Source: Psilocybe cubensis
Taxonomy: Eukaryota
Length of the DNA stretch: 64,000 bases
Assembly: GCA_017499595.2 (NCBI GenBank)
Contig: CM039009.1
Span: 2,046,001-2,110,000, forward strand
Direction of reading: 5' to 3'
The notes beneath the pieces are model-generated. The model was not told the origin of the DNA. It ran no database searches and was given only the letters and a program-made list of their open reading frames with translations. Positions 4,440 through 59,512 of the stretch are shown piece by piece. The translations under genes were made by a program, and so were the position numbers. Within the stretch, counting starts at the first letter, position 1; every line of letters begins with the position of its first letter.

Positions 4440-7400
4440 ACTTCAAACACCATCCCCCAGCTCCGTCTCCGTCTCCGTCTCCGTCTCCGCATCCATCGTC
4501 ATTATCATTCTCTCATTATTCTCGCTTATTACCCTAACCCCCCACCCCCTCCCCACCCCCCTCACTACCCCCCTTCCTCCCTCCCTCCCTCCCCCGCACT
4601 CCAAACCCTACAACCCCCTCCAAACCCTCTCCCCCTCAAAATCCCACCCTTCATCCCCCCTCCCTCCCCCTCCCCCCCTCCCTCCCCCCCTCCCAACCCC
4701 AACCCCAACCCCACCCTCAACTTCCCCCTCAGCACCCCCCTCACCCCCCCTCCACCCCCCCCTCATCGCCTCCCTCACCACCTTCTCCGCATTCCTCATC
4801 GCTTTCTGCGCCGGGCTCAATCCCGCGCTCGAACCCGAGCTGGAGGAGGAGGGGTTGAGCCCGCAAAGCGCAGCTTCGACGCTCCCTCTGACGAGCCCTA
4901 TCCCAACTGCCCCGCCTTTCCCTTTCCCTTTCCTCTTCCCACCACCATAAAAAACGATCTCCTCCGACCCAGACCGAGACCCAGACCCAGACCCAGACCC
5001 AGACCCAGACCCACCCTCAACCGGTACAACCCGCACCTTCTCCTCCATCTCGATCCCCACACCCCTCAACCTCTCCAAAAGCGGTGCGTAGATCCCCTTA
5101 TACGTCGGTCTAAGTACACCGTTGTAGGACGTGTATAGTGGTTTCGCCCCTCCCCCTCCGCCTCCCCCTAAACCACCTCCCCCTCCGAAACCACCAACAC
5201 CCAAAACCATCATCCCCGCCAGCGCCACAGGCAACCCCACCGTCCTTGCCATCGCACTCGCAGGCCTCAACCCTGGAGCGCCGATATGCCAATCATGCAC
5301 GGCGTGGTGGACGAGTGTCGACGTGTGTATTTCTAGTGGTTGTTGTTGTTGTTGTTGTTGTTGTTGTTGGAGTTGTTGAGTTTCGGTTCCGCTATCACCC
5401 AAGTTGCTCGTATTCGTATTCGCCGCACCCGCACCCGCACCCGCACCCGCACCCGCACCCGCACCCGCACCCCCAGCCCGCACAACAACCTCATGCGCCA
5501 GCACAACCATATCCCTTTCCCCCTTCTCATACCTCAACTTGGCCGCCAACAGGAAAGCGAACATGTCAAGTGGCGTGAGGGTTCCTTTCGGTACGGGGGG
5601 CATTGCTGCTGCGCTTAGGCTTAGTTCCCCGGTTGGATTACCATTTCCGGATGAAGTTGCTGGGCCTGGGATGAAGATAGAGATGAGTTTTGAAAGTGAA
5701 GGTGAAGGAAGACAAAGACGAAAGACAAGAAGGACGTAGCACGCACCGCCAACCCCAGGCTCAACAAGCCCCAACCACTCCAACGCATCTCTCAACTCAT
5801 CCACCCTCTCCGGATCCACAACCGGCTCCTCTGCTCCCTCTCCCTCCTCTGCTCCCTCTCCTTCTCCCTCTCCTGCTCCTCCTTTCTTGCCCTTGCCCGG
5901 TTTATAACCGGACGACGCAGAACCATAAGAAAGCAAAGAAGCAAGCGAAATATCCCTCCCCCTCCTCTCGCGCACAATGTTCAAAGATTCGGGTACGAGC
6001 TCGCGCCATGATGAGATTGAGATGCGCGATGTATTCTCGAGCAGGCCCAGAGCGGCAAACGACGACATCAACGACGAAAATCCCGGATGTCTGCGTTGTC
6101 CAAAACATCAAAGCCAAGCGCGTTAGAGTGTGCGTGTGCGTGTGATGCAAACCACAAAACAAACAAACAAACAAACAAAAACGCACCTCAAAGTCCCCCT
6201 AAGACAAGTCCTCAACCCACCCCCCACATCCGGCGTATTAAGCCTATAATGCTTGCGATACGCTAGACTATCTCTATTGGGCAATCCTTCAAGCTTAAAG
6301 GAGGGCGTGATGGGGATGTCTGGCCAGTAGTTTGATAAGAGGCGGGAGCCCGGGATATTGTGGACCTACAAGTCCAAATAATAAGCACACATCAACACAA
6401 AATAACAATAAAATACAAAAAAAAGAGAGAAAGAAACCCCTCACCTTCCCCGCAAGCAAATACACCGCCCCATTCAAAGCAGCACTCAACACACCCTGCG
6501 GCCTCCAACTAAACTTATACCCCAACGGCACCCTCCGCGCCTCCTCCGGCATCGGAATCCCCCCGCAAAAGGACGTGAAGGAAAGAATGTGCTTTTGCTG
6601 GCGTTTGAAGTTGTCGAGGAGGGATGTTGCAGAGATGTGGTCGATGCCTGGGTCGAGGCCTGTTTCGGTTAGGAAGAGGAGGCCTTTGGAGGAGGCGCTG
6701 TGGGTGGGAGGGAGGGTGAGTGGGTTGGGTGGGTGGGTTGGGTGGGGTGGAAGGGTGAGGGGAGGGAGGGTGGGGTGAGTATATGCGCGGGAATATAAAA
6801 TGTAAAACACCTACCGCTCATGCAACTTTGCCATCTCATCCGACATATACGACGCGGTGACCAAATGGGTATTACCATCCAAACACGCCTCTGCAATCGG
6901 CACGTGGAAGTTGACGGGGAGCAGGCTGTCCATACCATCATCAGTGTCGTCCATAAAACAAAACAAAATAAAATAGAATAGAATAAATAAAACAAGGATA
7001 GAAAAGCGGACCTAATGACGACATCGGCATCCGCAACGAGCTTCGCATACGTCCTCCTATCCGCCGCGTTGATAATCCGATACGCAACATGCTGATGCGG
7101 TCCCACAAGCCTCTCCAATTCAATCGCCGAGTCTCCCGCTATCCCAAGTTAAAAGTTAACACTAAGTCAAAAAAAGTAAAATAAAATAAAACACACCAAC
7201 GACCAAATCAATCTCTGGATTCTGCGCGACAATGTCGACAGCGGGGGCAGCAACCATGCCACTACCAAGAATCAACATCCTCTTCTTCTTCAACACCCTC
7301 GTCTCCTTCCTCTGCCCCTTCTCCACCTTCACCGCCACCTCCTTCCCCTCCCCACCAACCCCCCTCCTCTCCCTCGCAATCCCCTCCCACGCCCGATCAA

Positions 7401-9225
7401 CTCCCGCACCCAACCACCTATGCCTCTCCCCCAACCTCCCTCCCTCCGCCACAACAGCACCCCTCAACACCCCCGGCACATCCCCTTTCACACCCGCATG
7501 GAACGCTACGAGCTCGCGCAGCCTCCCAGCGCCCAGTAACGCCTGCGAGAAGTGCACCGACGCGTCGAGCGGGATGGTAGCTGGGAGAATGTCCACTGCC
7601 ATCATTCGTACTTTTGCCTTTGTCGTTCCCGTACCCCCACCCATCCCCCCATTTCCTCCCGCACCCGCACCCACCCCCGCACCGAACCCCCCACCAACAT
7701 CCACCCCAACATCCACACAAGGCTCCGAAACCGTCGTCGCCCTCGGCAAAAACTCAAGCCCCCCATTCACATCACAGCTAATATCACCCACACACATCGC
7801 CCTCGCTCCACCAATATACTGCGCCGTGTTCAGCGCCACCGCAAGCTGCTTCGTTTCCATTAGCCGTGGGAAGCCCGGTGCCCAGCCGGCGCCGTTCAGG
7901 AGTAGCGTTAAATAGGGTGCGACCTGGGAAGTTGTATGATTAGTTTAGTTTAGCTTTTGGGAAAGGGAAAGGGAAAGGGAAAGGGAGATACGCACCCGTT
8001 CAAAAAACACAGATTTATACGACGCAGGCGACCTATAATACCTCTCCCTCTCATACTTGCCTCCCTCAAGCGTAAACAGATAATCCTCCGGTTTCGCATG
8101 GACAACATAAATCTTTCTCAGATCCACCTCCGACGAGCCTGGTCGAGTCAAATCCGAATCATACCCATCGTCAAATCCGAACCATACCCATCGTCAATAA
8201 AAGCGCAATACACGTAGGGAAAAGACACATACGCGCACGCACAATCAACCCAGGCAGCTCCTCCACACTCACCATCTCCACAGGCAGCTCGGAAAGCATC
8301 GACAGGCACCCTTGTGCAACCTGGCCCGTCCTGTTCGCAAAAAATCAAAAAAGGGTCAGCGTGAGTTAAATGCGTCAGTTAATTCAGTCAGCGTGTTAAG
8401 TAAATGTGTCTGCCCGTTCCTCCTCATCGACATCCATCCATCTCGTCTAACAATCCATCCGTCCATCCTTCCGTCCATCCATCCCGTCTAACCAAACAAC
8501 CATCCCGTCCATCCCGTCCATCTCTCCTGTCCCGTCCATCCGTACCTCCGTCCATCCATCCCCCCCACCGCCACCTCTCCCCTCCACACACACACACATC
8601 TCATCTCCCCACACACCGCCACCTCTTCCCTCCACACACACCTCTCTTCCGCCCCACACAGCCGTCTCTCTCCCCCCCCCCAAAAAAAAAAAAAACCCAA
8701 CATCCCAAAAACCCACAACCCTCAACCCCCGCCTCCAACATCCCACAACCCTCTACAACGCAAACGCAAACGCAAACGCAAAAGCCCCAAAAACTCAAAA
8801 AAACCAAAAAATCCAACCCTCAACCCCCCCCCCCCCCTCCAAAAACCAAAACCAAACCAAAAAAAAACCCACCCAGTAACCCCAAAAACAAAAGGCCCCA
8901 ACACCCCGGGCGTCCCTCCCTCCCTAACAAGCCTCCCAATCTCGCGGAGCGACGCGCGGAGGTGGGATAGAGACGGGAGGGTGTGTGGGCGGGGTGTGTA
9001 CTGTTTTTCGTTTTTGTTGTTGGTTGGGGTTTGGGGGAGGGGGGAGGGGAAGGGAAGGGGGAAAGGGGAAGGGGAAGGGGGTCGTCGTCGTCGTCGTCGT
9101 CGTCGGTTGTTGTTGGTTGGGGTGGTTTGGGGCGAAGGCGGAAAGGGCGAAGGCGGAAGGGGCGAAGGGGCGAAGGTGGTGATGGTGGTGATGGTGGTTT
9201 GTCGTGGGTTTGTCGTGGTGGTGAT

Positions 9226-14852: not shown

Positions 14853-15076
14853 TTAGCACTTGCAGTCTCCGGGCTTGCAGGCGCAGCTATCAGACAAACG
14901 ACGTTAATCGAGTTATTGAAACATCATCGGAACAAGCCTTCTCACCTGGTGTTGCAGCCGCAGGAGTTGCTTCCGCAGCCGTTGTTGTTGACGGGGGTGT
15001 TGGTGATCTGTAGGCACAAAACGACAGTAAGCATCGATATTACACGATAGGCGAAGACAAAGCTCACAGCGATCAT
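14853..15076 (-). CDS. Metallothionein MT-1, 34 aa, MIAITNTPVNNNGCGSNSCGCNTSCACKPGDCKC (exons 15076-15068, 15007-14946, 14886-14853)
   Basis: Two GT-AG introns splice in frame. The C-X-C motifs and CxCKPGxCKC end match Agaricomycete Cu-type metallothioneins. TATAAAA at 15154-15148. Confidence 0.93.
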
Positions 15077-16649
15077 GTTTGCGAGTACGAGAAGAGCTTG
15101 TAGTTGTAGAACAAGTTGTTATTTCGTTGAGTGAGTTTTGGAGACCATTTTATACTTTCTCGACTCTGCAGAGGGCTTCAGACTCACTGATGCCAAGGAC
15201 AATAAAGTTTGGATAAATTGGTGTTAATTGCTGCATCAAACACGTATACAGGCAACGCTTCGCGCATTCGGGCCGCACGGTTTGAGCATTGGCCAAACGC
15301 TAACATGCTCACTGCGAAATAATCGCATGTTAGTCCCCAAGGTAAAGAGTTGTACAGTTTTATATGGTCATATTGAGGGGAGCCTCGTACGCTCTCTACC
15401 CTACGGGTTAATTGTACCGGGCATCGTTTCAACGGCCGACTCGCGCGCTCTATTCCAAGCCGTGTGTTGCGATTTCAGAATCATAGTCAGGAACCTTGGG
15501 ATTAATCCACAAATTGACCTAAAGCCAACAATTCCTGCCAGGGGACTGAAGTGGTAACTCACATGTTTAACATGGGACCCATATTTTACACTGATGGACA
15601 CTGGGGACGTGATTGACCTATTCAAGATCAAGATGACGATAATTGCGAACGCCACAGTTGCGCATGATATCAGCGCCCATGTAGCGCCGTATCTGGGTGG
15701 TAAGGGAATTGGGCATCAATTAGTGGCGGTGGTGCAGCTTCGGTCCCGAATACCGAATAGTTCAGCAACAGACGCTTGTTGAAAATGAAAATTGCTCATT
15801 CTAAACGTTGATCATCATGGCTCAATAAAAACGAGGCAATTTGTGTTGCTGCTTTGCTTCTCCACCAGCTAATTGCTATATGGTACCCAAGGTCCTAATA
15901 AACTTTTGCTGCCGTCCACTTGAACAAATTTGTTCAGTGATTATTTACTAATCCTCAAAGAAAAATCAACATTGCCTGTCCTTACCAGCTTCGCCAACGA
16001 TGGTAAATCAACGACACGTGGATCTCCATAAACCAAGCTCCGTCCGCATGTTTTCCTGACTGTAACCCCCCAACCCGCCAATTCTACACCTCAATTACAT
16101 CAAAAGCAGCAATGGATTATCAGGGTCCTTCTAAATCAGGAAATTTCTTTGCCCTGTTGGGTAGTAAAATCATGATCAATCAGTCTGCGTCGCGTTCCTG
16201 AGCAACTTCGAATTCTTGGACACATCAAAATCATATGTACCTTGCTCTCTGGACTTTAGACTTTGATGCTAAGCAAACATTTTTTGCATAGAATATAGAG
16301 CAATCTTCGCATCCCCGGACCGAACTGCAAGGATCGAGTGCATTCCATGGCAAAAGTCGGGTAAACATTTAGACAGCTGGAGGGAAAGAACGCACGATCA
16401 ATGCTGTACGTTACACAAGAAGCCTTTTCTATAGACTTTTTAGGGAAGATTTGCTATATGTTTGACATACAAACCTGCAAAAAAATCTATAAACGAGAGA
16501 TATTTGTCTACCTTTGCTGCTCTGATTCATATAGTTATAGTATACTGACCGTTACTAGGGGTCTGAGCCTACGGCGGATATCGCCCTGTCGCGTAGATGA
16601 AGATAGGAACGAGACCCCTTACCTGAATAAAACCTCAATTGACTCTCAT

Positions 16650-16717
16650 CTTGTCCTCATGACAGATTCAAAATCATCGAGCTGCAAACACGGGCAAATA
16701 TTCGAGGTAGTATAAAA
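16650..16717 (+). promoter_or_regulatory. MT-2 core promoter: TATA box and a block conserved with the MT-3 promoter
   Basis: TATAAAA at 16711-16717. CTTGTCCTCATGAC and ATCGAGCTGCAAACAYGGGCAAATAT are shared with 32386-32453 on the minus strand. Confidence 0.6.
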
Positions 16718-16783
16718 CGGCCTTCAAATCTCACTCGAAAAAACAGAAACTTGTTCTACAACTACAAGATCATACTCGCAAAC

Positions 16784-17007
16784 ATGTTCTCTGTAAGTTC
16801 TGTTACCACCTCCACCACTATGTCGTGGCTGACTGTCATAACGTGCCCACAGATCACCAACACCCCCGTCAACTGCGCTGGCTGCGGAAGCAACTCCTGC
16901 GGCTGCAGCACTAGGTAAGCAATGGTATCCAGACGTCGATATAAACGTTATCTGATTGTGTCTACTCTGACAGCTGCGCCTGCAAGCCCGGAGACTGCAA
17001 GTGCTAA
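16784..17007 (+). CDS. Metallothionein MT-2, 34 aa, MFSITNTPVNCAGCGSNSCGCSTSCACKPGDCKC (exons 16784-16792, 16853-16914, 16974-17007)
   Basis: GTAAGT...CAG and GTAAGC...CAG introns give the same 9/62/34-nt exon structure as MT-1 and MT-3. It has one extra Cys. Confidence 0.93.
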
Positions 17008-17792
17008 ACGCGTCATCCTCAATGGCATTTCGTTGAAGCCCATTAAAGTCCAAACTCCTGTCGTACAATATTCCAGTGGCCGCGTATCCAACTTGTAAAA
17101 AAACCTAAATAAATACTTATATCGTTTTGAGCGTGCCCTATCATTTGTCCATCTCTTATATCTATGAATGAATGATGAATCATCCCACAACACCACAACG
17201 ACAAAGATATTGCGGAGGGACGCTTACCGAGATCTGACGTCTGATATCGCCTACTAGCGCCTACCTCGCTCCGGATCCAAGCGCTGTGCAGGCGTATGAC
17301 ATCACTGATTAATGGCGCAGCTATGGTCCCAGAGATTCAGGCTTTCACATGTAGAAGCCTATAGTGTGTTCACGATCCCTCTCCGTTTAATTTAGATAAA
17401 TCAATAACTTTTATTGAGTATAAAATGGCTCAGGAATCACTCGTTTCTCCGTTGCAGTTTGTATCCAACTGGTCTGGTATATTTTTCAAGTAATGTACAC
17501 ACCGCAGACTACATCGTCGCATCATTCTGAATCACCATTACAAGCCTGGACCCCTGAGTTGGAAGTAACTGCAACCTCGAGCAATATTCCCTCGTAGCCG
17601 ATATTGATTGTCAATTCAACTGATGGTGCGCTTGAATCGCTGTCTCTAATCGCCTCTATACTAAAGAAGACAGCACACGAGCCGGAAAGCGCCGTGACTG
17701 ATTCGAGATAGAACGATAACCTTGATCAAAGGTACGAGTAATTGAATGTACCATCCGCGTAGCAGACGAATCGCATGCAAACGCTGTCCTCC

Positions 17793-18198
17793 CAGCCTTA
17801 GCTGCTACTTTTATGTATCAAATACTGGCAACTGCCAGTTGGGCCTGATACATGAGGAGAGGCAACTGCCAGTTGCCAGAATTGATGCATCGCGTGTTTG
17901 GTGGGGGGGAGAATGGGGGCGGGCATTGGTCAACACGACCAAACACTGTTGATAACGCGCGGGATCGCTGTACGGGGCCCCGCAGGGCGCGAAAAATGGC
18001 CTTGCTCGTCGTTGGGGCGGCCGTTTTGCGCGCCAAAAAATGGGTTGGGGTCCTCGTGACGAGCGGGATTTAATCCCGCCGTTTGCGCGCTGTTTGGGAC
18101 GATGAGCGGGGTGGATGGGTCGGGGCGACTTTGGATGACGTCCAGGAATAATTGTCGCCCCTTCCCAATTCGGAATTGATCATCAATCCGGATGCAGT
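17793..18198 (+). repeat. Left terminal inverted repeat
   Basis: 17810-18198 (389 bp) is the reverse complement of 30532-30920, with 2 mismatches seen. The outer 17 bp match imperfectly (CAGCCTTAGCTGCTACT vs CACCTCTAGTTGCTGAC). Confidence 0.95.
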
Positions 18199-30531: not shown

Positions 30532-30937
30532 ACTGCATCCGGATTGATGATCAATTCCGAATTGGGAAGGGGCGACAATTATTCCTGGACGTCATCCAAA
30601 GTCGCCCCGACCCATCCACCCCGCTCATCGTCCCAAACAGCGCGCAAACGGCGGGATTAAATCCCGCTCGTCACGAGGACCCCAACCCATTTTTTGGCGC
30701 GCAAAACGGCCGCCCCAACGACGAGCAAGGCCATTTTTCGTGCCCTGCGGGGCCCCGTACAGCGATCCCGCGCGTTATCAACAGTGTTTGGTCGTGTTGA
30801 CCAATGCCCGCCCCCATTCTCCCCCCCACCAAACACACGATGCATCAATTCTGGCAACTGGCAGTTGCCTCTCCTCATGTATCAGGCCCAACTGGCAGTT
30901 GCCAGTATTTGATACATAAAGTCAGCAACTAGAGGTG
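30532..30937 (-). repeat. Right terminal inverted repeat
   Basis: Reverse complement of 17793-18198. Confidence 0.95.
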
Positions 30938-32095
30938 GTCCTCCAAATTCACTGATCAAGAAGAGGCATGATTGATCTCGGTCCTCAAAGCGTGTTTGCC
31001 TTTGAGATCTTATGCTCATCAATGTGTTTGATTTTTTTCATTGGATAAGTCGACTAGCGCTTTTACAATCAACTGTCCAGAGCGATGCATACTTGGAAAG
31101 GTAACACCACGAAATCGTAGTATGTGGTGTCCGGAACCCTCCCGTGATGATAAATTCTCCTCGGCTGAAGGAAAAAATGAAGCTTGGCCTTTCAATATGA
31201 CTAAGTGATAAATACGTGTGTGCATCCTCTTTCCCGGAACTGTATGACATGTGTATAATCGTATACAGAGGTTTGCTAGTATACCAGAAACATCGGCTCG
31301 AGGCCGCGAAGCTTCTTCTATAATTCAGGCAGAGTTTGTGCCATTTTCTTCTAATTGCTCGCTTGGCATCAGAGCCTAAATCCCTTGCTTCCTTGTGGAG
31401 GCAAGAACGCTTAACGAAGAAACAACATCCAGTGAGCAAGGTACATAGGACTTTGATCCCTATTCCCAATGCTATGTTCAACTTATTTGCATAACTCCCA
31501 GGAATTCGAGTTGCTCAGGAACACGTTATACACTGAATCGAGCGGTTTGGAAATATGGTCGAACCTCCCTGGCTGGAAGATTTTATGTAAACCACGGAAA
31601 ATACGAAGTCAGCTCAATAAAGACGGTATTGGAAAGCCAGTAGCGTTTGAGATGTCTGAAAAGTTGAGCTTCCTAATAGATGATACGGAGAGTAAATCGA
31701 ATTCACGAGTCAACAATATAATAATCGTGACTGATTTTGAATTCAATAGAAGTGTATGGGTGAAAACAGGATGGCCGGGACCGAAGACTGACCGAAGACG
31801 CGTCACTAATAGGTGATGTTAGATTCTTGCTACACTGGCTAGAACTCCTGGACTCGGCGCGATGAAAGCGATATCAGTCTGGATCTCGGTAAGCGCCTCT
31901 CCGCACTCTCTTTGTAGTATCGTTGGATCCACCCTCATTGATTCACAAACTTATGAAATGGATAGATAGTAGGGCACGCTCAAAAAGATATGTGTATTTA
32001 TTTATTTGTTACAAATGGGATACGCGGCCACTGGAACATTGTACAACAAAGGTTTGAGGTTTGAGTTCGACGCGACGCCGTTGGAGATGACGCGT

Positions 32096-32319
32096 TTAGC
32101 ACTTGCAGTCTCCGGGCTTGCAGGCGCAGCTATCAGACAAAAAACAATGAGTGGGTGTTTGGGACGGTGTCTGGACACTATCTACTCACCCGGTGTTGCA
32201 GCCGCAGGCGTTGCTTCCGCAGCCATTGTTGTTGACGGGGGTGTTGGTGATCTGTGGGCACAAAAGGGCTATCAGCAACAACTTGGTGGGGTGATGAACA
32301 TAGAGCTCACAGCGATCAT
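32096..32319 (-). CDS. Metallothionein MT-3, 34 aa, MIAITNTPVNNNGCGSNACGCNTGCACKPGDCKC (exons 32319-32311, 32251-32190, 32129-32096)
   Basis: Same exon structure as MT-1 and MT-2, with canonical splice sites. TATAAAA at 32392-32386. Confidence 0.93.
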
Positions 32320-32991
32320 GTTTGCGAGTACGAGCTTGTGGTAGTAGAACAAGTTGTTGTTTTTTCGAGCGAGATAGGAAGACTGTTTTATACTCTCTCG
32401 CATATTTGCCCATGTTTGCAGCTCGATGGATCTGCGTCGGTCATGAGGACAAGCAGGGACTTGCTTGAAGCTGTATCTAGTAGCCTCGTTCCTAGCGCAT
32501 TCCTATCTGTTACAGGGCATCATTTCCACCTGAAAGATGCGACGAGGCTCTTGCCCTTCTGAGGCGACCTAATTTGCTTGTCTTCGGTATGTCGGATCGA
32601 TGTTTGTATGCGACAAACATGTATCGGAACATACTCGGATCACAATTCGTGGGAAATAGTATAACCATTTAAACCTCAGTTTCATCCTCCGCCAGTGGAG
32701 AACTTGAACTTCAAGATACTCCTTACGTGGTCCCTGTAAGCATCTCTTTGTATATCGACAAGGTTATGAATCTGTCATTATAAGTGAAGTGTAATTTAGA
32801 GAGAATGACTCACGCAATGCACACATAACAAAGCTATTGACAAGCATATGAAAAGCATAAACAGAGTATTTATCATACTTTTAGTAGGCGAAGCCTGTAA
32901 TAGACGGGCGCTTCAGCTCTCAAGCGATTTTGAAGACATATCAGAGCATGCTTCCATGTAGCTATACGCATCGGGAATCCGAGTACAAAAC

Positions 32992-37309: not shown

Positions 37310-37652
37310 GGCGGCGCATCGAAGTACTATGTTACCCGGTCAGCGCATCAAAACCTCAAGCTGCCTTCGGGTCCGAGTCGGCGCATCGAAATTCTAGCTG
37401 CCCTCGGGTCGGCGAATCGAAGTACTCAGATGCATTTGGGTCGGCGAATTGAAGTTTGTTCAGCGTATCAAACCTCAAGCTGCCTTCGGGTCGGCGAATC
37501 GAAATCTGCCTTCGGGTCGGCGCATCGAATTCTAAGCTGCCTCCGGGTCGGCGCATCGACATCTCAAGCTGCCTTTGGGTCGGCGAATCGAAGTACCAAG
37601 CTGCCTTTGGGTGAGCGGATCGCAATTCTATGCTGCCTCTGGGGCGGCGTAT
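37310..37652. repeat. Degenerate minisatellite, about 10 copies of a 27-33-bp unit (AAGCTGCCTTCGGGTCGGCGMATCGAA...)
   Basis: The GCTGCCTYYGGGTCGGCGMATCGA core recurs directly. Confidence 0.85.
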
Positions 37653-38346: not shown

Positions 38347-39011
38347 CACTGCGGGCGCCGACCGCTGTAAGTTAAACATACAGCAGAAAACTTACATGTC
38401 TTATGTAAGTTTCGCTGTAAGTTCAACATACAGCACACGTGTATGAAAAGCAAACACTCGACAAAGACATATTGTGTTTGGTGGCTGTATGCCGACCAAA
38501 CACAATTGCTGTAAGTAGATTGTAAATAGAATAAACACCTAAATTACACAAATTGTGTTTGTCCGGTGTTAGTAAAACATACACATTTTCTGTAAATGAC
38601 ACAAAAGCACTTTCTGTAAGTAAAATTTACACAGAAAGAACACTATTTGTGTATGTCAGACTTACACCATTAAATGAATTGAATAACTTGTGTAAGTATA
38701 ACATACACAAATTGTTTTCTTTGTGTGTAATTTTTACTTACAGTAAGTGCTGTTTGTATTACTTACAGAAAATGTGTATGTTTTACTAACACCGGACAAA
38801 CACAATTTGTGTAATTTAGGTGTTTATTCTATTTACAGGCTACTTACAGCAATTGTGTTTGGTCGGCATACAGCCACCAAACACAATATGTCTTTGTTAA
38901 ATTTTTGTTTTCCCGACACATATGCTGTAAGTTGAACATACACCTAAACTTACATAAGACATGTAAGTTTACTGCTGTATGTTTAACTTACAGCAGTCGG
39001 CGCCCGTAGTG
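38347..39011. mobile_element. Non-autonomous CACTA/CMC-type foldback MITE, 665 bp
   Basis: Ends are CACTGCGGGCGCCGAC and (reverse complement) CACTACGGGCGCCGAC. A 3-bp AGA repeat flanks both sides (38344-38346, 39012-39014). The arms are inverted almost to the centre. Confidence 0.9.
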
Positions 39012-48878: not shown

Positions 48879-51800
48879 TTGCTATCGCAAAATCACTCTC
48901 GAAGCGCTTGAAGATTAGGTTTCCAACTTTTCATCGTTATCTTTCTCGCTATATATATGTCAGTGTAAAGATCACCCATCTACCGAAGCGTCAAGCGAGC
49001 GTGGAGTATTTAGGATCTGGTAGGGCTTTACGACCAGTACCCTTGTGAATGGACGGCGAATTGAAACGCTGTGAAAGGGTGCGAAAGATAGAAGCGCCGG
49101 AGCTACATACCTGAAAATCATTCCTTCCGCTTGGAAGCAGTTTACAGGTATCCACCTGCCACATTATGATAGGTAACGTCAAGAGCAATAGCTTATTCAT
49201 ACAAAGCCCATCCTTCACTTGTTATTGGGCAAATTTTGAATATTTGGGTTTAATTCATAATAATTTGCCACAAAGAAGTAATTTCGTTACGGATTTGTGC
49301 AAAATTCTGCAATTTTTAACCCTGTTGCTGACGGCTTGCCTAGGACTTGCTTCTTCCCGCCACATGAACCATGACGATCCCCGAAGACAACTGTTCAATG
49401 ATCTCACAAGATGTCAAGGTGTCCGAAGAAAATGCCACGATCCAAGGCAGCGCCAAGTCTCGTTGGCTCACACAGAACTCGACGATTGCTTGAGCTCAGC
49501 AAAAGGCGAACGTCCAGACCACATTGGCATCGGGCCTACGGTTGAATATCCGAATTTCTGTATAAGATGAAGATACAAAGATTCGATAAGAGAATGAGAA
49601 CTATGAAGAAAAGTTACAGTCCATGAAACTTGGCGAAAGTGTTCAAAGAATATCTGTGATGGGGCCGGCACTGGCAGATGGCCATCGACAGTTGTCGACT
49701 GATCGTTCAACAACTCGAAACGTAAGGAGCCCAACGTTAGTACAATGCTCCTGTCCATGATACGTACTTCGGTGTCGTTTAATCAAATACTGCAGTTCAA
49801 TCGCAGATGGCTATCAAATCCAGTTGACAAGTCATAATGCACTAACAAGTCATGATAGTATTGACTCTATAGTAACAATATATACAATTGCGAAAATGAA
49901 GATGCGTACCATTGGAGTACTATATTATAGTGAATGCTATCCATTTTTACATGCAAACTCGCACTCCAAACAGTTGGTGCATATCACTATTATTTCATGA
50001 CATCCACAGTGAGCGCTTTCCGTGAAATTGAATAGTACACAACTCATGATCAGGGTGCTAGCGTAATTAGAACACTATGATTAAAGAGACAGTCATCGGG
50101 TTATGAGGCATAACCAGTGGCGTATCCGAACAAGATATGAAATTGTCATAGAGCGCATAGGACAAAGCACAGGACAATATAGAGCCACAACGAACATTCG
50201 AATAGTACAACAACATTCAAAATCAAGGCAGAGCGCAAACATAGTACAAAGTAACGTCGAAAACAACAAGCAACTAGTGAGTAGGCATAGGAGTATCCAA
50301 TTCAGTGTCAGTGTACACAGCCAAGAAACACCATTTCCGCCCCATTAATCTTACCAACTCAAAGGGTCTGCTTCAGGTACGACACGGCCCTACATCTTCC
50401 CTTCATCAGTCGTGACATTCTTCCCGGCGCTCGAATCGACATCCGTTTCTCCGTCCCTGCTAGCGCTGCTATACGCTGCTTTCAACTGCTCCGCAATGAC
50501 CACACCAGCCCTTTCCACCCCACCCAACGGACTACTCTTAAACCTAGTGCCCTTACTCGTCGTAGGGACAGCGACACGCAAACCCGGAGTGGTAGTACTA
50601 CCCGCATGCACGCCTGCACCAGAAACGTTACCAGCATGTGAAGCGCTTCCACTGACAGCCGCCGTACCCATCATAGACGGAACCGGCGTCACAAGTGGGG
50701 ACGTCGTCGCAGACCCAGGGGCCGATGCAGCAAGGGCGTCCGCGACTCTCAAACCGCCACCTCCCAGCGAAGGCACCGGGCTTGGCGCGATACTCCCAAC
50801 GGGTGTACCAACAGCTGAAGTCTGTGCCTGTCCATGAGCCGCCTGAGCCAACCTGCGCTTGCGATCCAGCAGAATCGCCTCGAGCGGTGCAGGCGACGTG
50901 CTTCTCGAAGGAACTTTATCGATCTTATGCGCAGTGGAAAGATTAGGGCCAACGCTTGTACTCGCACTAACACTGAGTGGCAAAGGGAAAGATGGTTGTG
51001 TCACAGCAGCAGGCGCTGCAGCACCAAGATTTACATGACCACTAGGTGCAGTGGTGGCTTCCGTTGATGGTGAGTTCAAAGTGCTATCAGGCGAAGTAGG
51101 CTTCAACGATGTTAAAACACCAGAGTCTGAAGACGATACGCTGCTGTGTTGCTCAAGTATGACAGACGGGGGACTACGACCTGGACTCCTAATTGGCTTC
51201 GGCATCTGAATAGGGGTAGCCGTATTGTGCATCGGTTCCCTAGCGCCAGAGTTAAGATCAACATGGGCCACTTCTCCAATCCGGACCGATTTGACAGGTG
51301 TTGCGCCCTCCGTCGCGTCAGTACTTCGCTCGGGAGCATCACGCTCCTCACGGGGGACAGGCGGAGCACTCCTGGTTCTAAAAAACCCTAAACCTTTCAA
51401 AGCTGTAGGGATCTGTGCGGTCAAAGTCGAGGGACCTTTCTGATGTGCATGTGTCCGAGCTGCTTCTGCGCCATGGGTAGAACTTGGGAGTCCGTGTTCG
51501 GCTTCAGTTTGAATGACGACCTGGGGAGGAACTTCATATGGGTCTCCGTGAGCACCTTGAGTATCAAATTCGTCATAAATCTCCTCTCCAATAAGCTCTG
51601 CGAGATCCTCGTCAGCCAAGACCTGTCCGAACAACTATGCAAACATACCTTCGAGCACGTCTTCAAGTGTTATAATTCCGAGAGGCATAACAGCAGGATC
51701 GAATCCTTGCAAAAACTACAAACAAAAAAATCCATGAGCCCAGTGTTACCCTAACGTTAATGTTGACACACCTCCGCAGCGCCTTCCTTTGCCAGGACAG

Positions 51801-53065
51801 CATCGGCAGGCATACTCTGTTCCATTGACGACATATTGGTCATACCACCGAGACTAGGTAATTGGAAGCCAGTGATCGTCCTACGAGCCTCTTCGCTTTT
51901 GCGACCTCCCTCCTTCTCTTTGTCGTTACCCTTAACTTCCGTGCCCTTTGGTTTATCGCTCGTTTCTGAATCCTTTGACGTGGCTTTCTCGATGTCGTAT
52001 TGGTGTTTATACATAGCGTCAGGCGTGTCTCCGTCTTGAGTGCTTTCGTCCGAGCTCTTGCGCTTGAGTCCTTGCATTAGTTTGCGACGGCCTCCCAGCT
52101 TCGTAGGGCGAGTGACGTTCTTCTCATCTTCACTTTCCGTGTCAGAATCCGTATCTCCCATCCCGACTCGCTCTCGCAGGCGCTGAGTGAGGCCACGTTT
52201 TACGGCTTTCTTTACTGAAGCAGCCTGTACAATAATCAATTACTTTGAAAGTAACATTGATTAATAAATGCCTTACTTTCTCAACGCTGAACCGACTGAC
52301 AATGGCCATGTGGCTTCGTCCTTCTTGGAATTTATCCAGGATGCCTAACAAAGGTTCGTTGTTCGGAACAAAAGGGACCTTGTTCAACGGTATCTTGCGC
52401 AAGGGAGTAGCCTCTGAAATGTCGATTAATGACCACCGACGACAGTGCGTACTTTGAATCGTACCTTTAGGGTCAAGCAATACACATTGTTTGACAAGTA
52501 GAATGCCGATGATTTTCTTGACCTTCAGAGTTCTCTGCCCTGGTTTGTGGCTATCGTCCTCGATTTCATCGGCGCCAGCAACCACCGATACGGGCACGTC
52601 AACTTCTTCATAAACGGGTACACGACTGTGGCCCGTTTGGCATATCTTCTTCAATAATGCGTAATCGAGCTTTGAGTCAATCGACAGCATGAATACATCC
52701 TTGATGGGGGTCATGGCCTGTAATGAAAGCATTCAATAGACCTCCTATTGCTCATTTCAACCGCTACTCACTTGCTTGACCACCTTTTCTTGAAGGTCTA
52801 GCGTGGCGCCAATGATCGTGACGGTGTCGGTCTTAAGGTCTCCGCCGTGCGTTGCGTGAGACGAATGCATGGCAATAAGCTCTTTAAGCTCTTCATAACG
52901 AAACCTATTCAATACCAATCTATCTTTTATGAAAACGAAAGTTTACTGACCTGCTCGGCGGTAGATGATGCCGTGATGGGGCCCGAGTACAAGTTCAACA
53001 GAGACAATGTCCAGTTCCAGTTATCAGAGCGTCTTCATTAGAAAAAAATTCGAACATAAACACAC

Positions 53066-53131
53066 CTGCAGTTTGTGTCAATGAGCTCACAGCAAATTTA
53101 CTTGCAGAATAATGTGCGAAGAAGGGTACGC
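53066..53131 (-). pseudogene. Orphan catalytic exon of SDR-A (GVPFFAHYSASKFAVSSLTQTA)
   Basis: 66-nt exon with TAG acceptor and GTGTGT donor. It carries the YxxxK motif and is phase-compatible with the exon starting at 55116. Confidence 0.85.
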
Positions 53132-53190
53132 CTAGAGAAAAAGAAGAACCAATTTCCACCGTCAGTCAATCCCCCAGGGGGTGTGAGTGG

Positions 53191-54343
53191 TAATCCTCCG
53201 ATGTCTTCCGGAGTTCCATTAAATCCTAGAGCTGTTGCGATTCCTGGCTGTCATCAAAGATGTGTCAGATTGCGCATAAGCATAAATCATCTGGTTCAAT
53301 GCCTGACAATTTCCCCGGTTTGATTTGGGACTAATTCTCTCAATGCCTTTCTCACTACATTGAAGAACAATATCCAACTTAGCCGTTTGGTCGCTAACTA
53401 AAATTTCCAGTGACCTACTCATATCAGTTTCGATTGGCCCGGGAGCATAGGCATTGACTGTGATGCCATACTTTGCCCATTCTCGAGCCCCAGTTTGAGT
53501 CAGAGAGGTGACAGCAAACTTGCTCGCGGAGTAAGAGCAAGAATTGGGTAGTCCTGAGGGGTTATATTACGTTAAGTGATACCGAAGCCCATATAAGGAC
53601 ACAAATTAATATGATCACCTTGCTTTCCCGCCAGAGAGGACGCGCCGATGATCCTCCCTCCTCTTTTTTGCTTTATCATTTGCTCTGCAGCATATTTGTA
53701 GCACAGAAATGTTCCGCGACCGTTGACACCCAATACGTTTTCCCAATCATTTGTGGTGGCTGCCATTCAAATCGTTTCGGAAATCTATGAGAGGGAAGCA
53801 AAAATATGCTGGAGAACGTACTGTCGAGTATTGATTTGTAAACAGCTATCCCAGCGTTTGCGACCATCTAGGTATAGGTTTTAAGCTTGATACCAAATTG
53901 AGGAATCCATTGGATCGTCGACTTACAACATCAACGCTTCCAAGTACATCCACAGCACCATCCACGACACGCCTCACGTCTATATCTAACGATACATCAC
54001 CTGTGAGAGCGACAGCCTTCCTCCCCATCTCCTCTCGGATCGTTTTACATAGCTCGTTTACTGACGACGCCATGGAGTGTATGTCATTGACAGCAATGTC
54101 GTACCCATCGTGTGCAAGTTGAAGTGCGACTGCCCTCCCTATTCCTTTCCCCGCACCAGTCACCACTGCCACTCGATGAAGGCTTGGCAAATTTCGAAGT
54201 GTAGAATATGCAGCCGCAGTATGTGTACTTTGGAACGAATTTGGTCGGCACTTGCCATCGAGTTTTCCAAGCTGACGTGCAGTTCGAATGGAGAGCCGGG
54301 AAATAGGTTTGCCTATCATCAAGTGTATTTGAGAGGTGGACAT
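53191..54343 (-). pseudogene. SDR-B (acetoin/diacetyl reductase-like short-chain dehydrogenase), 3'-truncated after GTPEDIGGL
   Basis: TGAGKGIG, MVANAGI, GRIIGASSLAGKQG, YSASKFAV and VNAYAPGPIETDM are present. The expected VSYL...TGQ...DGG C-terminus is absent. Confidence 0.85.
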
Positions 54344-54643
54344 GCTATGCACCGTAGCTGGTTAGGTTGAAGAATCGGTGGGGTGAGAAGTAGCTTGGTA
54401 ACTTGGATTCTGAAATGTTATATGTCTTATCTCGAGGAGTTCTCATGTGTCTGTGCAGATGTTCTCGAAGCTGAATGCCAAAGATATTTGAGGAACGTGA
54501 GCACTGAGCAATCTTGGGATTAATTTTAGGTCTGGAAGATGCTATCCACCGACGCCACAACATCTCTCTTTGCCATCAGAATAGCTACACTTGCACCGGG
54601 ATTCGTCGGTTCTCATGCATAAGTGTTCATTTCAGACTTTACA

Positions 54644-55116
54644 TCAACGGAAAATGACACCACCGTCAATTGTAAGCTATACAATCCGGTTGATTGAGAG
54701 AATGGTGGAGAATAGTCAGAAATTTATGAAAGAACAAAGCGCTGAAAGGATTTAGCACTTACAACTTGTCCAGTCATAAACCGCGCTCGATCCGAAACGA
54801 GGTAAGAGACCACTCCTGCAACATCTTCTGGCGTTCCTATAAATCCAACCGCAGTGGCAGAGGCGGAGGCAGGCTAGAAACATTATTAGTAAATGAGCAC
54901 GTATAATGCACCGAGGCATAGACAAATTTCAAATCTTACAACATCTTTGTTATAGTCAGGATTTATCTCTGCAAAAGTTGCAGCCTCTCTAGCTAAAGAA
55001 GTCCAATGTCAGGAAACAATCCCTTGATATATAAATCCTTTACTTACTCAAGTCGGTGTCAATAGGACCTGGAGCGTATGCATTGACATTAATACTGTAT
55101 TTTGCCCACTCTTGCG
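54644..55116 (-). pseudogene. SDR-A 3' half (4 exons), 5'-truncated
   Basis: AQEWAKYSINVNAYAPGPIDTDL, GTPEDVAGVVSYLVSDRARFMTGQV and LTIDGGVIFR*, with GT-AG introns. Confidence 0.85.
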
Positions 55117-56493
55117 CTGAATGAGCAATTTCGCAACTGGCCAAGCAATAATGGTCTGTGTAATAATTTCAGCGAAACGGGCCAAGTCAAAGAGACAATA
55201 TACGTTACCATTGCATAGATCAAGTATCTAGTAAAACCTGCCATTTTGGCACCCAAATATAAGCCATGGCGGGTGAAGAGAGACTGAGGAATGATTTCCG
55301 CGAATCTAAATCACATATCATAAGTATTTTAGTAATTAAATGGGCTTGATGGCATAAAAGCCTCAACCCAAGCATCTCATGGGGACGGGCAGGCCAAGAC
55401 GGATCGACCATGAGGTAGTCGCGTGACGTCATTAACTACACATTAAGAGGGAATAGAAAGTGTAACTTTGGTTTAGCGTCCAGAGATTATCGGCGTAGAA
55501 TCAAATTTTGATCCTCTCTTCTCCTAGCCGTTCCACCGACGGGGACAATGGCGACAATGGCAGACGTTGTGTCCAACAAGCAAGAAACTCACATGACGAT
55601 CAACACGGTGGATACGACGACACTCTGCACTCCACCCCCAAGGACAGGGTCTGCAATAACAGGCAGAGACTCGTTGACAATCATGTTGGCCAATAGCAGA
55701 GTAACGAGAAGGAGGTGCCCATTTTTGCGTATTGGCATAATCTTGTTGGCATACTTTCGCTGCTCACTAGAGTGCAATACCGTCAGTTCCCGGAAAGGGG
55801 TGTAGAGCGGATGTGACACGTACGGGGTTCCGCTAATACTGAGTACGTTGAGCTGAGTCTCATCAAGACTCATATAGCCCAATGTCAAACCGGCAAACAA
55901 ACCCGACAACAAAACAAGGATAGGGATGAGGACGACAAAGACAATATCTTTGGTTTGGTGCGGGTCGAACTTCTCGCGCTTGGCGAGCACAGCATTGCTG
56001 AGCTCGCCACTGGAGCGATGAAAGAAACGTGGCGCATGTTGTGCTGCAAGTGAGAATAGAATATATACAAGTCGGGAAGAATGGGAATTGCGCGCAGAGA
56101 TGGGAACAGGAACCATTCACGTTGGTGGGGAAAGAGGTGACAAGTGGCACTGCCCCAGGACTTCTCTAACCCATATACGTATCCACTTGTGCTGACAAAT
56201 AGAAATTGTCCCACAGTCATTGCCGTGCCACACGCGGAAAACAGACATAGCACAACATGTTCTACACGCCCTCGAGAGAAGAAAAGAACTCCAGTATGTA
56301 CAGTGATCTGGTAGGGGATCATTATAGAACCAGTTGGTTGAGATCCTCGATTGGAACTTCCCAAATCGGCGTGCTCCAAAGGAATTAGCTATGCGGATAT
56401 AGTACGGGACCCAAATGGTAGAGTTTGCAATGTAGTAGGCGCTCATCGCTCTAACGTTGAATGACCAAGCTAAAATATATACAAAGTACAAAA

Positions 56494-56767: not shown

Positions 56768-57936
56768 CTACACACATGACAACAATGCATTGTAGGTCCC
56801 ATCGATGTTGTCTTGCATAGGCTGTCAATTGTGGATAAGTTTGGATGGTACATGCCATTGCCAAAAACTTACAAAATGATTAGCTCCAGCCATGCTCTTC
56901 ACTATGACAGGCACTCCCGCCTTTTCAGTGATCGCTTCTATCTCCCACCCGGCCCAAACAATAGGCCAAGGGGTTTCTTCTCCATAGAGGACACTAAATA
57001 ATGTGTTCCCCCACTCCCGCCTGGTCTCCTCATTTAAGAACGTACGATCAAATAAAATTCTGCCAGGTTGGAAGGCCGGACCACCTGTTAGAGCATCGTC
57101 CCCACTTGGCCCACCTGTAACGTCGATTTTACTGAGCAATTGCTCCACTGAGAAATCGCTGTATGTCGCGGGCTTCAGTTGAGTGGTATTTTGATATATC
57201 AGCCTGGTACAATCCCGCTTGTGCAAGTCGGGATGAGGGAAGTATTGTGTTACCCATCCCACGAATGCCTGACCTCGCTGCTCCAGCGGTATCTCCTCGT
57301 CGTGAAGTAATACCCATCCTCCGGATGGTGGGTCTGGAAGTCCATGGTTCTGCGCGGGCAGATCTAAACGTCTTATGAGCCAGCTTTGCATTTCCAATTC
57401 CGATAATACGTACCCCACCAAATTAACCCTTTAATATGACGAACCAGTCGCGCCTTTGCGTCCACAGGAAATGTCGACATGGAACAAACCATTGCGCTCA
57501 GAAACGCTGCTCCCATTGACCATCCAGTGACGATGACCTCTTTCAGGTCGTGTTGTTGTATCATTTTGTCCACAAATGAGAGCAAATACTCTCCCTGCTT
57601 TAAATACGCTCCCACAACATCTGCAGGCGAGTCCGACTTAAACGCTTGTGTCTCCTCGATAGTATATGGAGTCGAGCCCGGATAAAGGCGACGGTCCGGC
57701 GCGATAAACCGGCATCCGAGTGACGATGCCGCTTCGACCATTGGAAGAAAGATCGCTACTCAAGTTTGTACATGAATTACACATGCATTTTGGCCAAAAT
57801 CAAGCTCACCGCTGTGAAATGTGTGGCCATGGATGGCGATGATGGTAATGTAGTTGGTCTTGCTCGCAGGCGCTCCTGAATCACGGTACGCAAACTCGAC
57901 ACCGTCGGCTATACGTGTTGTATACATAGAACTCAT
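56768..57936 (-). CDS. Alpha/beta-hydrolase fold protein, copy 1, 4 exons
   Basis: FAYRDSGAP, IHGHTFHS, APDRRLYPGST, nucleophile elbow GWSMG and GANHF. Confidence 0.85.
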
Positions 57937-58307
57937 TGAAGATGCACAATATCCAAAGAACAGAAGCTGAAGAAACAAACGGCTTAGCTGCACTACTGAC
58001 TCCTTATCTTATAAGGTTTTCAAAGGCATGTCGACGATTTTTGGTTGCCGGCTGTTATTTACGTCAATGTCAATGCTGATGCTGCGCCATACTCGCATAA
58101 ATATCTTCCGAGAAAGGGTCTAAATTGTATACAGTGTCAACACAATTTAGGGGGCTATTTAGCTTTGCAACGCGATAACGAAAGGAAAATTTGATCAGCT
58201 GCAAGGCACATATTCGTGTTACTAAGAGCAGTGTCATGGTCGGATCCTCCTCGAAATATTGTTCTTTTAGGCATCTCCATAGTATCTAAATTGACCAGAA
58301 ATATACG

Positions 58308-59512
58308 TCATACACGACCCTTGTCCATGCTTGCTTGTATACACTGTATGAAAGCATCGTATGTCCCAGCAACGTTATCCTGCATAGTCTGTAAATTGCG
58401 CATGAGATTAAACGGCATGAAGATATTTGCCAAAACCTTACAAAATGATTGGCTCCAGCAATGCTTTTGAAATAAACGGGCAATTCGGCCTTTTCAGTCA
58501 GCCTTTCAATCTCCCACACCGCCCACACAACATTCCAAGGGGATTCTTCTCCGTATAGAACACTGAACTGTATGTCCCCCCACTCCTTTCTCGTTTCCTT
58601 GTCCAAGAAAGTCCGCTCAAATAAAATTCGTCCAGGGACAAAATCCGAGGAACCAGAGACAGTATTATCGCCTCTTTGCCCAGCCGTAATGTCTATTTTG
58701 CCAAGAACTTCCTCAAAGGAAAAATTGCTGTATGTCGCAGGCTTTGTCTGTGTTGTGTTCTTGTAGATCAAATTGCTGCAGTCCTTCTCTTTGAGGTTGG
58801 CATGGGGGAAATACTGCATCACCCATTCCGCGAATACTTTCCCTCGAAGCTCTGGCGGAAGGTTCTGATCGAGAAGTGGTAGCCATCCTCCAGAGGGAGG
58901 ATCTCGAATCCCGTGAATTTGTGAAGGTGGATCTAAACTTGGAATTAGTAGAAATATTCCTATTATTATTATTGCAAATAGTGCGTACCCCACCAAATCA
59001 ATCCCTTGACGTGGCGACGAAGTCGAGCTTTTGCATCTGCAGCGAATGTCGGCATAGAACACACCGTTGCGCTTAGGAATCCTGAACCCATTGACCACCC
59101 AATAAGAATGACTTCATTGAGATCGTGTTCCTGTATCATGTTATCCACAAACGACAACAAATATCCTCCTTGCTGAGTCCAGGCCCTCTCTATCTCGTCT
59201 GGTGTCCCCGATTCCAAAGCTTCTACCTCTTGCTTTGTGTATGTTGTAGATCCTGGATAAAGGCGTCGGTTTGGTGCTATAACGCGATAGCCAACTGAAT
59301 GTGCAGCTTCTATCATAGGAAGGAATACAGCTGTTTGTAAAATGACTATTAGCGCTCTTCGTGGAAATGGATATGAGATACTCACCGCTGTGGAACGTGT
59401 GTCCGTGAATTATGATGCAGGTGCAGTAATCTTGTTTGTTTGGAGGTGCTCCAGAATCGCGGTATGCAAAGTCGACTCCATCGGCTACACGCGTCGTATA
59501 TGCTAAACTCAT
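58308..59512 (-). CDS. Alpha/beta-hydrolase fold protein, copy 2 (tandem paralogue), 4 exons
   Basis: Same motifs (GWSMG, GANHF) and intron positions as copy 1. Confidence 0.85.

Follow-up and report, generated by a model that had tools for sequence, protein, structure and literature searches.

The reinsertion of chromosomal DNA circles is widely invoked to explain structural variation, exon shuffling and gene disruption, and natural cases resolved to the base are few. Those named in the sources drawn upon here are region B of wine yeast, KIT of cattle, vasa of tilapia and some primate duplications (PMC3053389, PMC9694575, bioRxiv 10.1101/2022.06.22.497135). Region B of wine Saccharomyces cerevisiae is a 17-kb segment of Zygosaccharomyces bailii, the copies of which are described as circular permutations and the footprint of which was read as circle integration by non-homologous end joining at 2-3 nt of microhomology (Galeote et al. 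2011, PMC3053389). For cattle KIT, serial translocation by circular intermediates is described (Durkin et al. 2012, as summarised in PMC9694575 and bioRxiv 10.1101/2022.06.22.497135), and for tilapia vasa a circular intermediate was deduced from the same footprint (bioRxiv 10.1101/2022.06.22.497135; PMC9694575). In the circularome study of Magnaporthe oryzae, a permutation pipeline is reported to have retrieved the wine-yeast case but to have detected no example among 306 M. oryzae genomes (Joubert & Krasileva 2022, PMC9694575); our literature search found no case of circle reinsertion in a filamentous fungus. The present analysis concerns a 64,000-nt stretch of Psilocybe cubensis (assembly GCA_017499595.2, contig CM039009.1, forward-strand positions 2,046,001 to 2,110,000; hereafter the window, numbered from its first letter), in which a 2.1-kb block with parts of two short-chain dehydrogenase/reductase genes (SDR-A and SDR-B) splits an exon of a magnesium-transporter-like MAM3/CNNM gene.

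Most likely, this block is a recent, transposon-independent insertion in one allele or nuclear type of this filamentous fungus, copied or moved from a tandem SDR-A/SDR-B pair elsewhere. A sequence-only reading of the window had proposed an SDR segment that was circularised, reopened at another point and integrated into MAM3. The two observations that could have spoken against this proposal, i.e., the reads across the junctions and the position of the SDR-A exon with the YSASK motif, both turned out in its favour.

Public sequencing runs were searched with positions 52400-55800 of the window; 14 runs were listed, 11 of them with part of this stretch, and four of the 14 (X1, X8, X10 and X13) were mapped on positions 52000-56200 at 90 % likeness. 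X1 consists of contigs and is likely the source sample of the assembly, X8 of contigs under another organism label, X10 of contigs from RNA and X13 of raw Illumina reads from a separate study. Since the contigs of X10 contain many skips of the GT..AG type, this run represents spliced RNA. The rule of the mapping tool asks for 31 letters on each side of a joint. Depths are given per contig and run and do not equal copy numbers, and the donor locus was rebuilt solely from reads mapped on the window.

Interrupted MAM3 exon and composition of the insert

The 5' exons of the MAM3 gene (55592-56116) encode a CNNM (DUF21) domain (Pfam PF01595, E 1.2e-13, 51.6 bits versus a cut-off of 28.4). On the minus strand the gene reads ...TIIAWPVAKLL up to position 55124 and resumes at 52997 with ELVLGPHHGIIYRRA. 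These ends belong to a single 79-nt exon, the 5' part of which spans 32 nt (55124-55155, minus strand, ...TIIAWPVAKL) and the 3' part 47 nt (52951-52997, minus strand, LELVLGPHHGIIYRRA), as delimited by translation and by the joints 55155/55209, 52997/55124 and 52890/52951 in the RNA of X10. Excision of 52998-55123 by coordinates restores a single open frame, and no MAM3 nucleotides were lost at insertion; the coordinates and the frame restoration given by the sequence-only reading were exact to the base. The interrupted allele is predicted to run out of frame after ...WPVAKLL and to meet a stop 24 codons further on, while the intact allele in the same sample presumably supplies the function. 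Pfam gave no match to a CBS-pair domain on the open reading frame (ORF) 52142-52732, which reads through introns. An interpretation of the 2,126-nt block as an intron was rejected, as its borders have no GT/GC...AG at or near them; the block is, moreover, absent from RNA and DNA of other strains.

The donor-derived part of the block comprises 2,125 nt (52999-55123, minus strand) and is circularly permuted, as indicated by a joint leading back by 2,125 nt from 55123 to 52999 in all three DNA runs and by an empty site skipping 2,126 nt in all four runs. In the direction of MAM3, the 3' exons of SDR-A are followed by an intergenic part, SDR-B from its start to ...GGL and, finally, an earlier exon of SDR-A. 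This order had been proposed before and is borne out by translations, landmarks and RNA joints.

All of these pieces lie on the minus strand. The insert opens with the final 7 nt (55117-55123) of an SDR-A intron, here termed intron Y (75 nt in the donor), as delimited by the RNA joint from 55116 to 53066 and the DNA joint leading back. The SDR-A 3' exons (54644-55116) comprise 55116-55048, 54992-54940, 54873-54763 and 54676-54644 with the stop codon at 54646-54644, as supported by translation and by the X10 RNA joints 54992/55048, 54873/54940 and 54676/54763; the exon 54763-54873 matches Pfam adh_short_C2 (E 1.4e-6). The adjoining ~300 nt (54344-54643) represent the 3' untranslated region of SDR-A, an RNA contig of X10 covering 54502-54676, and then a short spacer with the presumed promoter of SDR-B. 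SDR-B extends from its ATG to ...GTPEDIGGL and lacks the 3' end (53191-54343; Pfam adh_short, E 1.9e-13 and 2.4e-14). Its exons are predicted from GT/AG borders and paralogy, and not from RNA, at 54343-53927, 53867-53822, 53759-53619, 53553-53419, 53354-53308 and 53247-53191. At 53191-53192, a TA (minus strand) common to SDR-B and to a second SDR-A intron (intron X) forms the putative circle-closing joint, which is evident from loose ends of X13 reads, from two X1 contigs meeting there and from a 58-nt junction contig (53163-53220). Beyond it lie the 3' part of intron X (53132-53190, 59 nt, ending in the acceptor before 53131; the X13 loose end behind 53192 supplies the exon end and the GT start of the intron), the SDR-A exon with the catalytic YSASK motif (53066-53131, VPFFAHYSASKFAVSSLTQTA), identified by translation and joined to 55116 in an RNA contig, and the first 67 nt of intron Y (52999-53065), which begin with the donor site and are bounded by the same RNA and DNA joints as its final 7 nt.

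Both paralogues carry YSASK (YxxxK), and exon 1 of SDR-B encodes TGAGKGIG, a TGxxxGxG Rossmann motif. SDR-A and SDR-B share 98 of 135 nt (~73 %) over their common stretch and 71-77 % in the repeat comparison. The top partial NCBIfam match of the SDR pieces is acetoin reductase, far below the cut-off because only SDR fragments are given. The SDR-B copy is predicted to retain its upstream region and promoter and to end, 3'-truncated, in a 30-residue foreign tail, and the 3' half of SDR-A in the insert is predicted to be devoid of its own promoter. No second copy of the insert was found within the window. The yeast ARS consensus sequence (ACS) motif, taken from PMC3053389, is absent from both strands of the insert, which carries little weight outside Saccharomyces. 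An 11-nt palindrome (C5-A-G5, plus strand) at 53171-53181, within the retained part of intron X and 10 nt from the putative circle-closing joint, might mark a fragile spot.

Empty site and insertion junctions

The empty site, joining 52997 directly to 55124, is present in each of the four runs mapped. X8 contains it within a 7,274-nt contig (depth 13.1, 255 letters on the shorter side), and X10 within a spliced RNA contig (depth 133.1) that also skips the neighbouring MAM3 introns at GT..AG-type ends. X13 provides 29 raw reads with 22 start points, in addition to 8 short loose ends; since these reads account for approximately the whole flank depth, no room is seen for an insertion allele in X13. 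In X1 the empty site is represented by a short contig (depth 4.1). An uninterrupted MAM3 allele, as asked for on the basis of the first reading, is accordingly found in X8, X10 and X13 as well as at this low depth in X1.

The three novel junctions are covered by separate contigs solely in X1, i.e., one of the four runs. The border 52997/52998 lies within 52969-53028 (depth 9.7), the internal joint within 53163-53220 (depth 9.1) and the border 55123/55124 within 55094-55153 (depth 6.21), with MAM3 flanks at 16.4 and 15.4. These contigs of only 58-60 nt have the size that short words give at a fork. The junction support in X1 thus stems from reads rather than from the assembler, though not from an independent sample.

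Donor locus and base-level structure of the joints

In all three DNA runs, 55123 is joined to 52999 via one extra letter (X1, depth 6.4; X8, depth 11.4 with 63 letters on the side; X13, 28 reads with 22 starts and 75 letters on the side). The first and last bases of the insert are therefore neighbours in the ordinary donor locus. In an RNA contig of X10 (depth 29.2), 53066 is spliced straight to 55116; the YSASK exon is thus the immediate upstream neighbour of the 55116 exon in an expressed SDR-A gene and, consistent with the DNA joint in X1, X8 and X13, does not belong to a third SDR gene. The donor intron Y amounts to 67 + 1 + 7 = 75 nt. The sequence-only reading had rebuilt this intron at the correct length; the base that it took from position 52998 is a different one in the donor in all three DNA runs.

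At the internal joint, 26 reads of X13 leave the window at 53191 and continue SDR-B in frame as VSYLASDRGR, the next part expected for SDR-B by comparison with VVSYLVSDRAR of SDR-A. At 53192, 22 reads of X13 leave into 23 further nucleotides of intron X with its GT start, preceded by an exon end. The normal sequences of SDR-B and SDR-A share just TA at 53191/53192, and the X1 joint contig, at 58 nt, has the length expected for a 2-nt overlap. The joint predicted at about 53191/53190 is hence real, and its exact site shifts to 53191/53192 with the two shared nucleotides.

At the outer joints, microhomology amounts to 0-1 nt. Position 52998 carries an A on the plus strand, as does 55124, and the donor letter between 55123 and 52999, which is the same in X1, X8 and X13, differs from it. 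It follows that 2,125 nt are donor-derived, that the 2,126-bp unit is short of one base and that a target base was doubled or a filler added. The single non-donor base at 52998, up to which the MAM3 contig of X1 runs, may accordingly be regarded as a 1-nt target duplication or filler. An absence of target duplication, as originally stated, is correct to within 1 nt. Because the insert falls one base short of the circle and a target base is present twice, the outer junctions look like end joining with minimal processing, which fits better than the reciprocal crossing-over assumed in the sequence-only reading.

Two observations concern the SDR locus in the other runs. In X13, depth over the SDR interval (53000-55100) is ~40-57 with both directions summed, i.e., 1.5-1.8 times that of the MAM3 flanks (~25-32), and some variants in this interval are carried by 1/4 to 1/2 of the reads; X13 may be heterozygous at the SDR locus or have extra copies of it. 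In the RNA of X10, a spliced SDR-A contig was found, but just short paralogous bits over SDR-B (53269-54396), a hint that the two genes are expressed differently, which is limited by the fact that contigs cannot show silence.

Age, zygosity and depth

Among the four runs mapped, the insertion is confined to X1, where the empty allele is found as well, consistent with two nuclear types or a mosaic. In X1 no letters differ over 52999-55123, and insert and donor collapse into common contigs (52999-53192 and 53191-55123); with the caveat that contigs can drop rare variants, this zero divergence argues for a recent event. X8 and X13 differ from the window at more than 100 sites in the insert interval.

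The depths in X1 are less easily explained. The contigs specific to the donor, namely a 2,797-nt contig upstream of SDR-A (7.76) and the joint leading back (6.4), contrast with flanks at ~16, and those common to insert and donor reach 14 (1,933 nt) and 21.4 (194 nt). At face value, an SDR allele identical to the insert occurs in about half of the X1 genomes. Half depth would result either if the other haplotype were too different or absent, or if the donor had been lost where the insert was gained; the donor locus in X1 looks hemizygous or lost from the insert-carrying nuclei.

A less likely, though credible, variant is that the segment was moved and not copied, such that the donor SDR region is gone from the insert-carrying nuclei and X1 represents a heterokaryon or mosaic in the midst of a cut-and-paste "circle transposition". 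The depths in X1 allow for it, with the common 1,933-nt contig at 14 (approximately single-copy), donor-only contigs at 6.4-7.8, junctions at 6.2-9.7 and flanks at 15-16. If true, a living strain would let excision, circle and reinsertion of a native gene fragment be followed in a filamentous fungus.

Origin of the insertion

The insertion probably arose from a 2,126-bp circle that was sealed at TA, opened again and taken up at a break in the MAM3 exon. According to this mechanism, two breaks 2,126 bp apart, one at nt 23 of SDR-A intron X (nt 25 with the shared TA) and one after the GGL codons of SDR-B, would have released a fragment, the ends of which would have been joined at the 2-nt TA microhomology to form the circle. 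The latter would later have been broken within SDR-A intron Y with loss of one base. Non-homologous end joining would then have sealed the opened circle into a double-strand break of the MAM3 exon, doubling one target base. The insert displays the features of a circle insertion in that it is a collinear but permuted donor interval, contains an internal joint of the interval's ends and faces an empty target site in relatives; its outer ends abut in the donor via the single base that the insert lacks. A circle accounts automatically both for outer ends that lie no more than one base apart in the donor and for an internal joint that unites the far ends of the interval. The existence of the circle, the succession of the breaks and the mode of repair are inferred from this footprint, which comprises the permuted order, the sequences of all junctions, the intact donor, the empty site and the identity of insert and donor in one sample.

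Several points weigh against a circle or against the insertion as such. The circle is deduced from its footprint and was not itself observed, and the identical four breaks and three ligations in another time order give the same footprint without a circle. The reopening site is imperfect, with one base lost and one gained, and the half-depth donor contigs of X1 would not be expected if the insert had simply been copied from a donor that both haplotypes carry. Moreover, with their 58-60 nt the junction contigs of X1 fall short of the 31-letter rule on both sides, X1 may be the assembly's own sample and hence not independent, and no long read was seen to span the entire insert.

The other time order just mentioned corresponds to a three-break shuffle, in which the donor was cut at intron X, intron Y and SDR-B, and two adjacent linear fragments entered the MAM3 break together with their order exchanged and their orientation kept, in the manner of a chromothripsis-like event or a multi-fragment templated insertion. 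Such a course of events is unlikely. It needs exactly the breaks and ligations of the circle route, and all junctions fit; the donor sides in X1 at about half the flank depth (7.76 versus ~16) would fit donor loss from insert nuclei, and capture of foreign fragments at breaks is documented in yeast according to PMC12214859 and PMC11724301. However, a single 2.1-kb fragment with its ends ligated to each other is a simpler assumption than two separate fragments that had to fall into one arrangement and orientation, the six ends have lost next to nothing, and the insert contains no further fragments or rearrangements. Replicative template switching (microhomology-mediated break-induced replication or fork stalling and template switching, MMBIR/FoSTeS), or the use of one unit of an already existing tandem duplication of the SDR interval as template, appears distinctly improbable. 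The very short microhomologies (TA internally, 0-1 nt at the outer joints) agree with template switching, but its last switch must exit within one base of the first entry, which is automatic for a circle and otherwise a coincidence. As for a tandem duplication, contigs and reads of X8 and X13 diverge or end at 53191/53192, joint-spanning reads not being separately counted; since no 53191/53192 joint appears in these runs, a tandem duplication is not evident in those strains.

An artefact of assembly or sequencing, i.e., a chimeric contig, is very improbable. All junction support comes from one sample, which may be the assembly source, and the junction contigs are short; yet three separate junctions occur at a k-mer depth of 6-10, about half that of the flanks (15-16), beside empty-site and donor contigs in the same sample, and a permuted unit set into a unique exon with its flanks complete is not what an assembler error would produce. 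Capture or movement by a transposable element (Helitron, Crypton, Pack-type DNA element or retroposition) has the slightest probability of all. Some such elements move via circular intermediates, which counts in favour of this possibility. Against it, terminal inverted or direct repeats are absent at 52998/55123, in every strain mapped the ends of the insert are adjacent to each other within a normal intron of an expressed gene, the insert encodes no transposase or recombinase, and it has retained its introns and has no poly-A. Helitrons have 5'-TC...CTRR-3' ends and a 3' hairpin and insert between A and T. Here, the ends read CATTCAG...CTCTG(T) on the minus strand, the site is T|T, and no terminal structure is seen; likewise, a retroposed copy is not indicated, since introns with matching RNA splice joints are kept and poly-A is lacking. 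No terminal repeats, long terminal repeats (LTRs) or hairpins were found at the insert ends. The repeat search and the splice joints thereby bear out the sequence-only reading in its statement that terminal inverted repeats, LTRs, poly-A and Helitron ends are missing and introns retained. A 20-nt match of 75 % between 53000-53019 and 55191-55210 was judged to be due to chance.

Other features of the window

Two tandem paralogous genes (56858-57936 and 58427-59512) share 72-76 % DNA identity. The minus-strand ORF 57373-57759 yields a weak alpha/beta-hydrolase match below the Pfam cut-off (E 7.8e-5). No Pfam families were found for the ORFs 50390-51634, 51757-52239, 52142-52732, 56825-57430 and 58286-59113.

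A 407-nt inverted repeat (17792-18198 and 30532-30938, 98 % complementary) brackets 12.3 kb, and short segments close to it (14853-15162, 16627-17201 and 31909-32476) occur as direct and inverted copies of 75-100 % identity; the region resembles a segmental duplication in inverted orientation that includes a small multi-copy unit. At 38347-39011, a foldback with 259-nt arms (92 % complementary, 147 nt apart) contains a further pair of 76-nt arms abutting centrally and may represent a miniature inverted-repeat transposable element (MITE) or other hairpin element. A short array at 37374-37626 consists of ~32-nt units ending in ...GGGTCGGCG[AC]ATCGA that are 64-84 % alike. Long C-rich low-complexity tracts (plus strand) with many overlapping imperfect repeats extend over 4525-8834.

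Comparison with known systems

The M. oryzae circles described as extrachromosomal circular DNA or microDNA resemble the postulated circle in being small and in carrying genes or gene fragments without transposon machinery (PMC9694575). According to that study, circles were seen and no reinsertion (PMC9694575), whereas in the present case the product of reinsertion is seen and the circle is deduced. Insertions at yeast double-strand breaks are likewise described as native DNA from elsewhere that fills a break by end joining and has no transposon features (PMC12214859, PMC11724301). They differ from the MAM3 insert in their size of ~10-1000 bp, and circular permutation does not figure in the descriptions drawn upon here (PMC12214859, PMC11724301).

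As in the summaries available for cattle KIT, a chromosomal interval is found elsewhere with head and tail swapped, which was read there as excision of a circle and its reinsertion. The cattle segments of 492 and 575 kb are, however, described as germline-fixed breed alleles acting via gene regulation, while the 2.1-kb insert disrupts an exon.

With wine-yeast region B, as portrayed in PMC3053389, the insert shares the permuted gene order, non-homologous integration with 0-3 nt of microhomology, occasional base changes at junctions, breakpoints without repeats and a circular intermediate deduced from its footprint. Region B is described as a foreign, horizontally acquired 17-kb segment, multi-copy and equipped with a working autonomously replicating sequence (ARS) (PMC3053389). 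The P. cubensis insert, by contrast, is native, 2.1 kb in size, seen at a single site and without an ACS motif, and its genes are cut into fragments. As this case indicates, a 2.1-kb piece cutting across two genes can relocate without a transposon and presumably knock out a gene. In the present locus, an intact and expressed donor, a joint with 2-nt microhomology, the point of reopening, an empty allele in one sample and zero divergence come together. The case is thus recent and heterozygous, small, native and resolved to the base, and its value is that of a test system, not of a new principle; what sets it apart from region B is that donor, circle-closing joint and empty allele are all available at base resolution.

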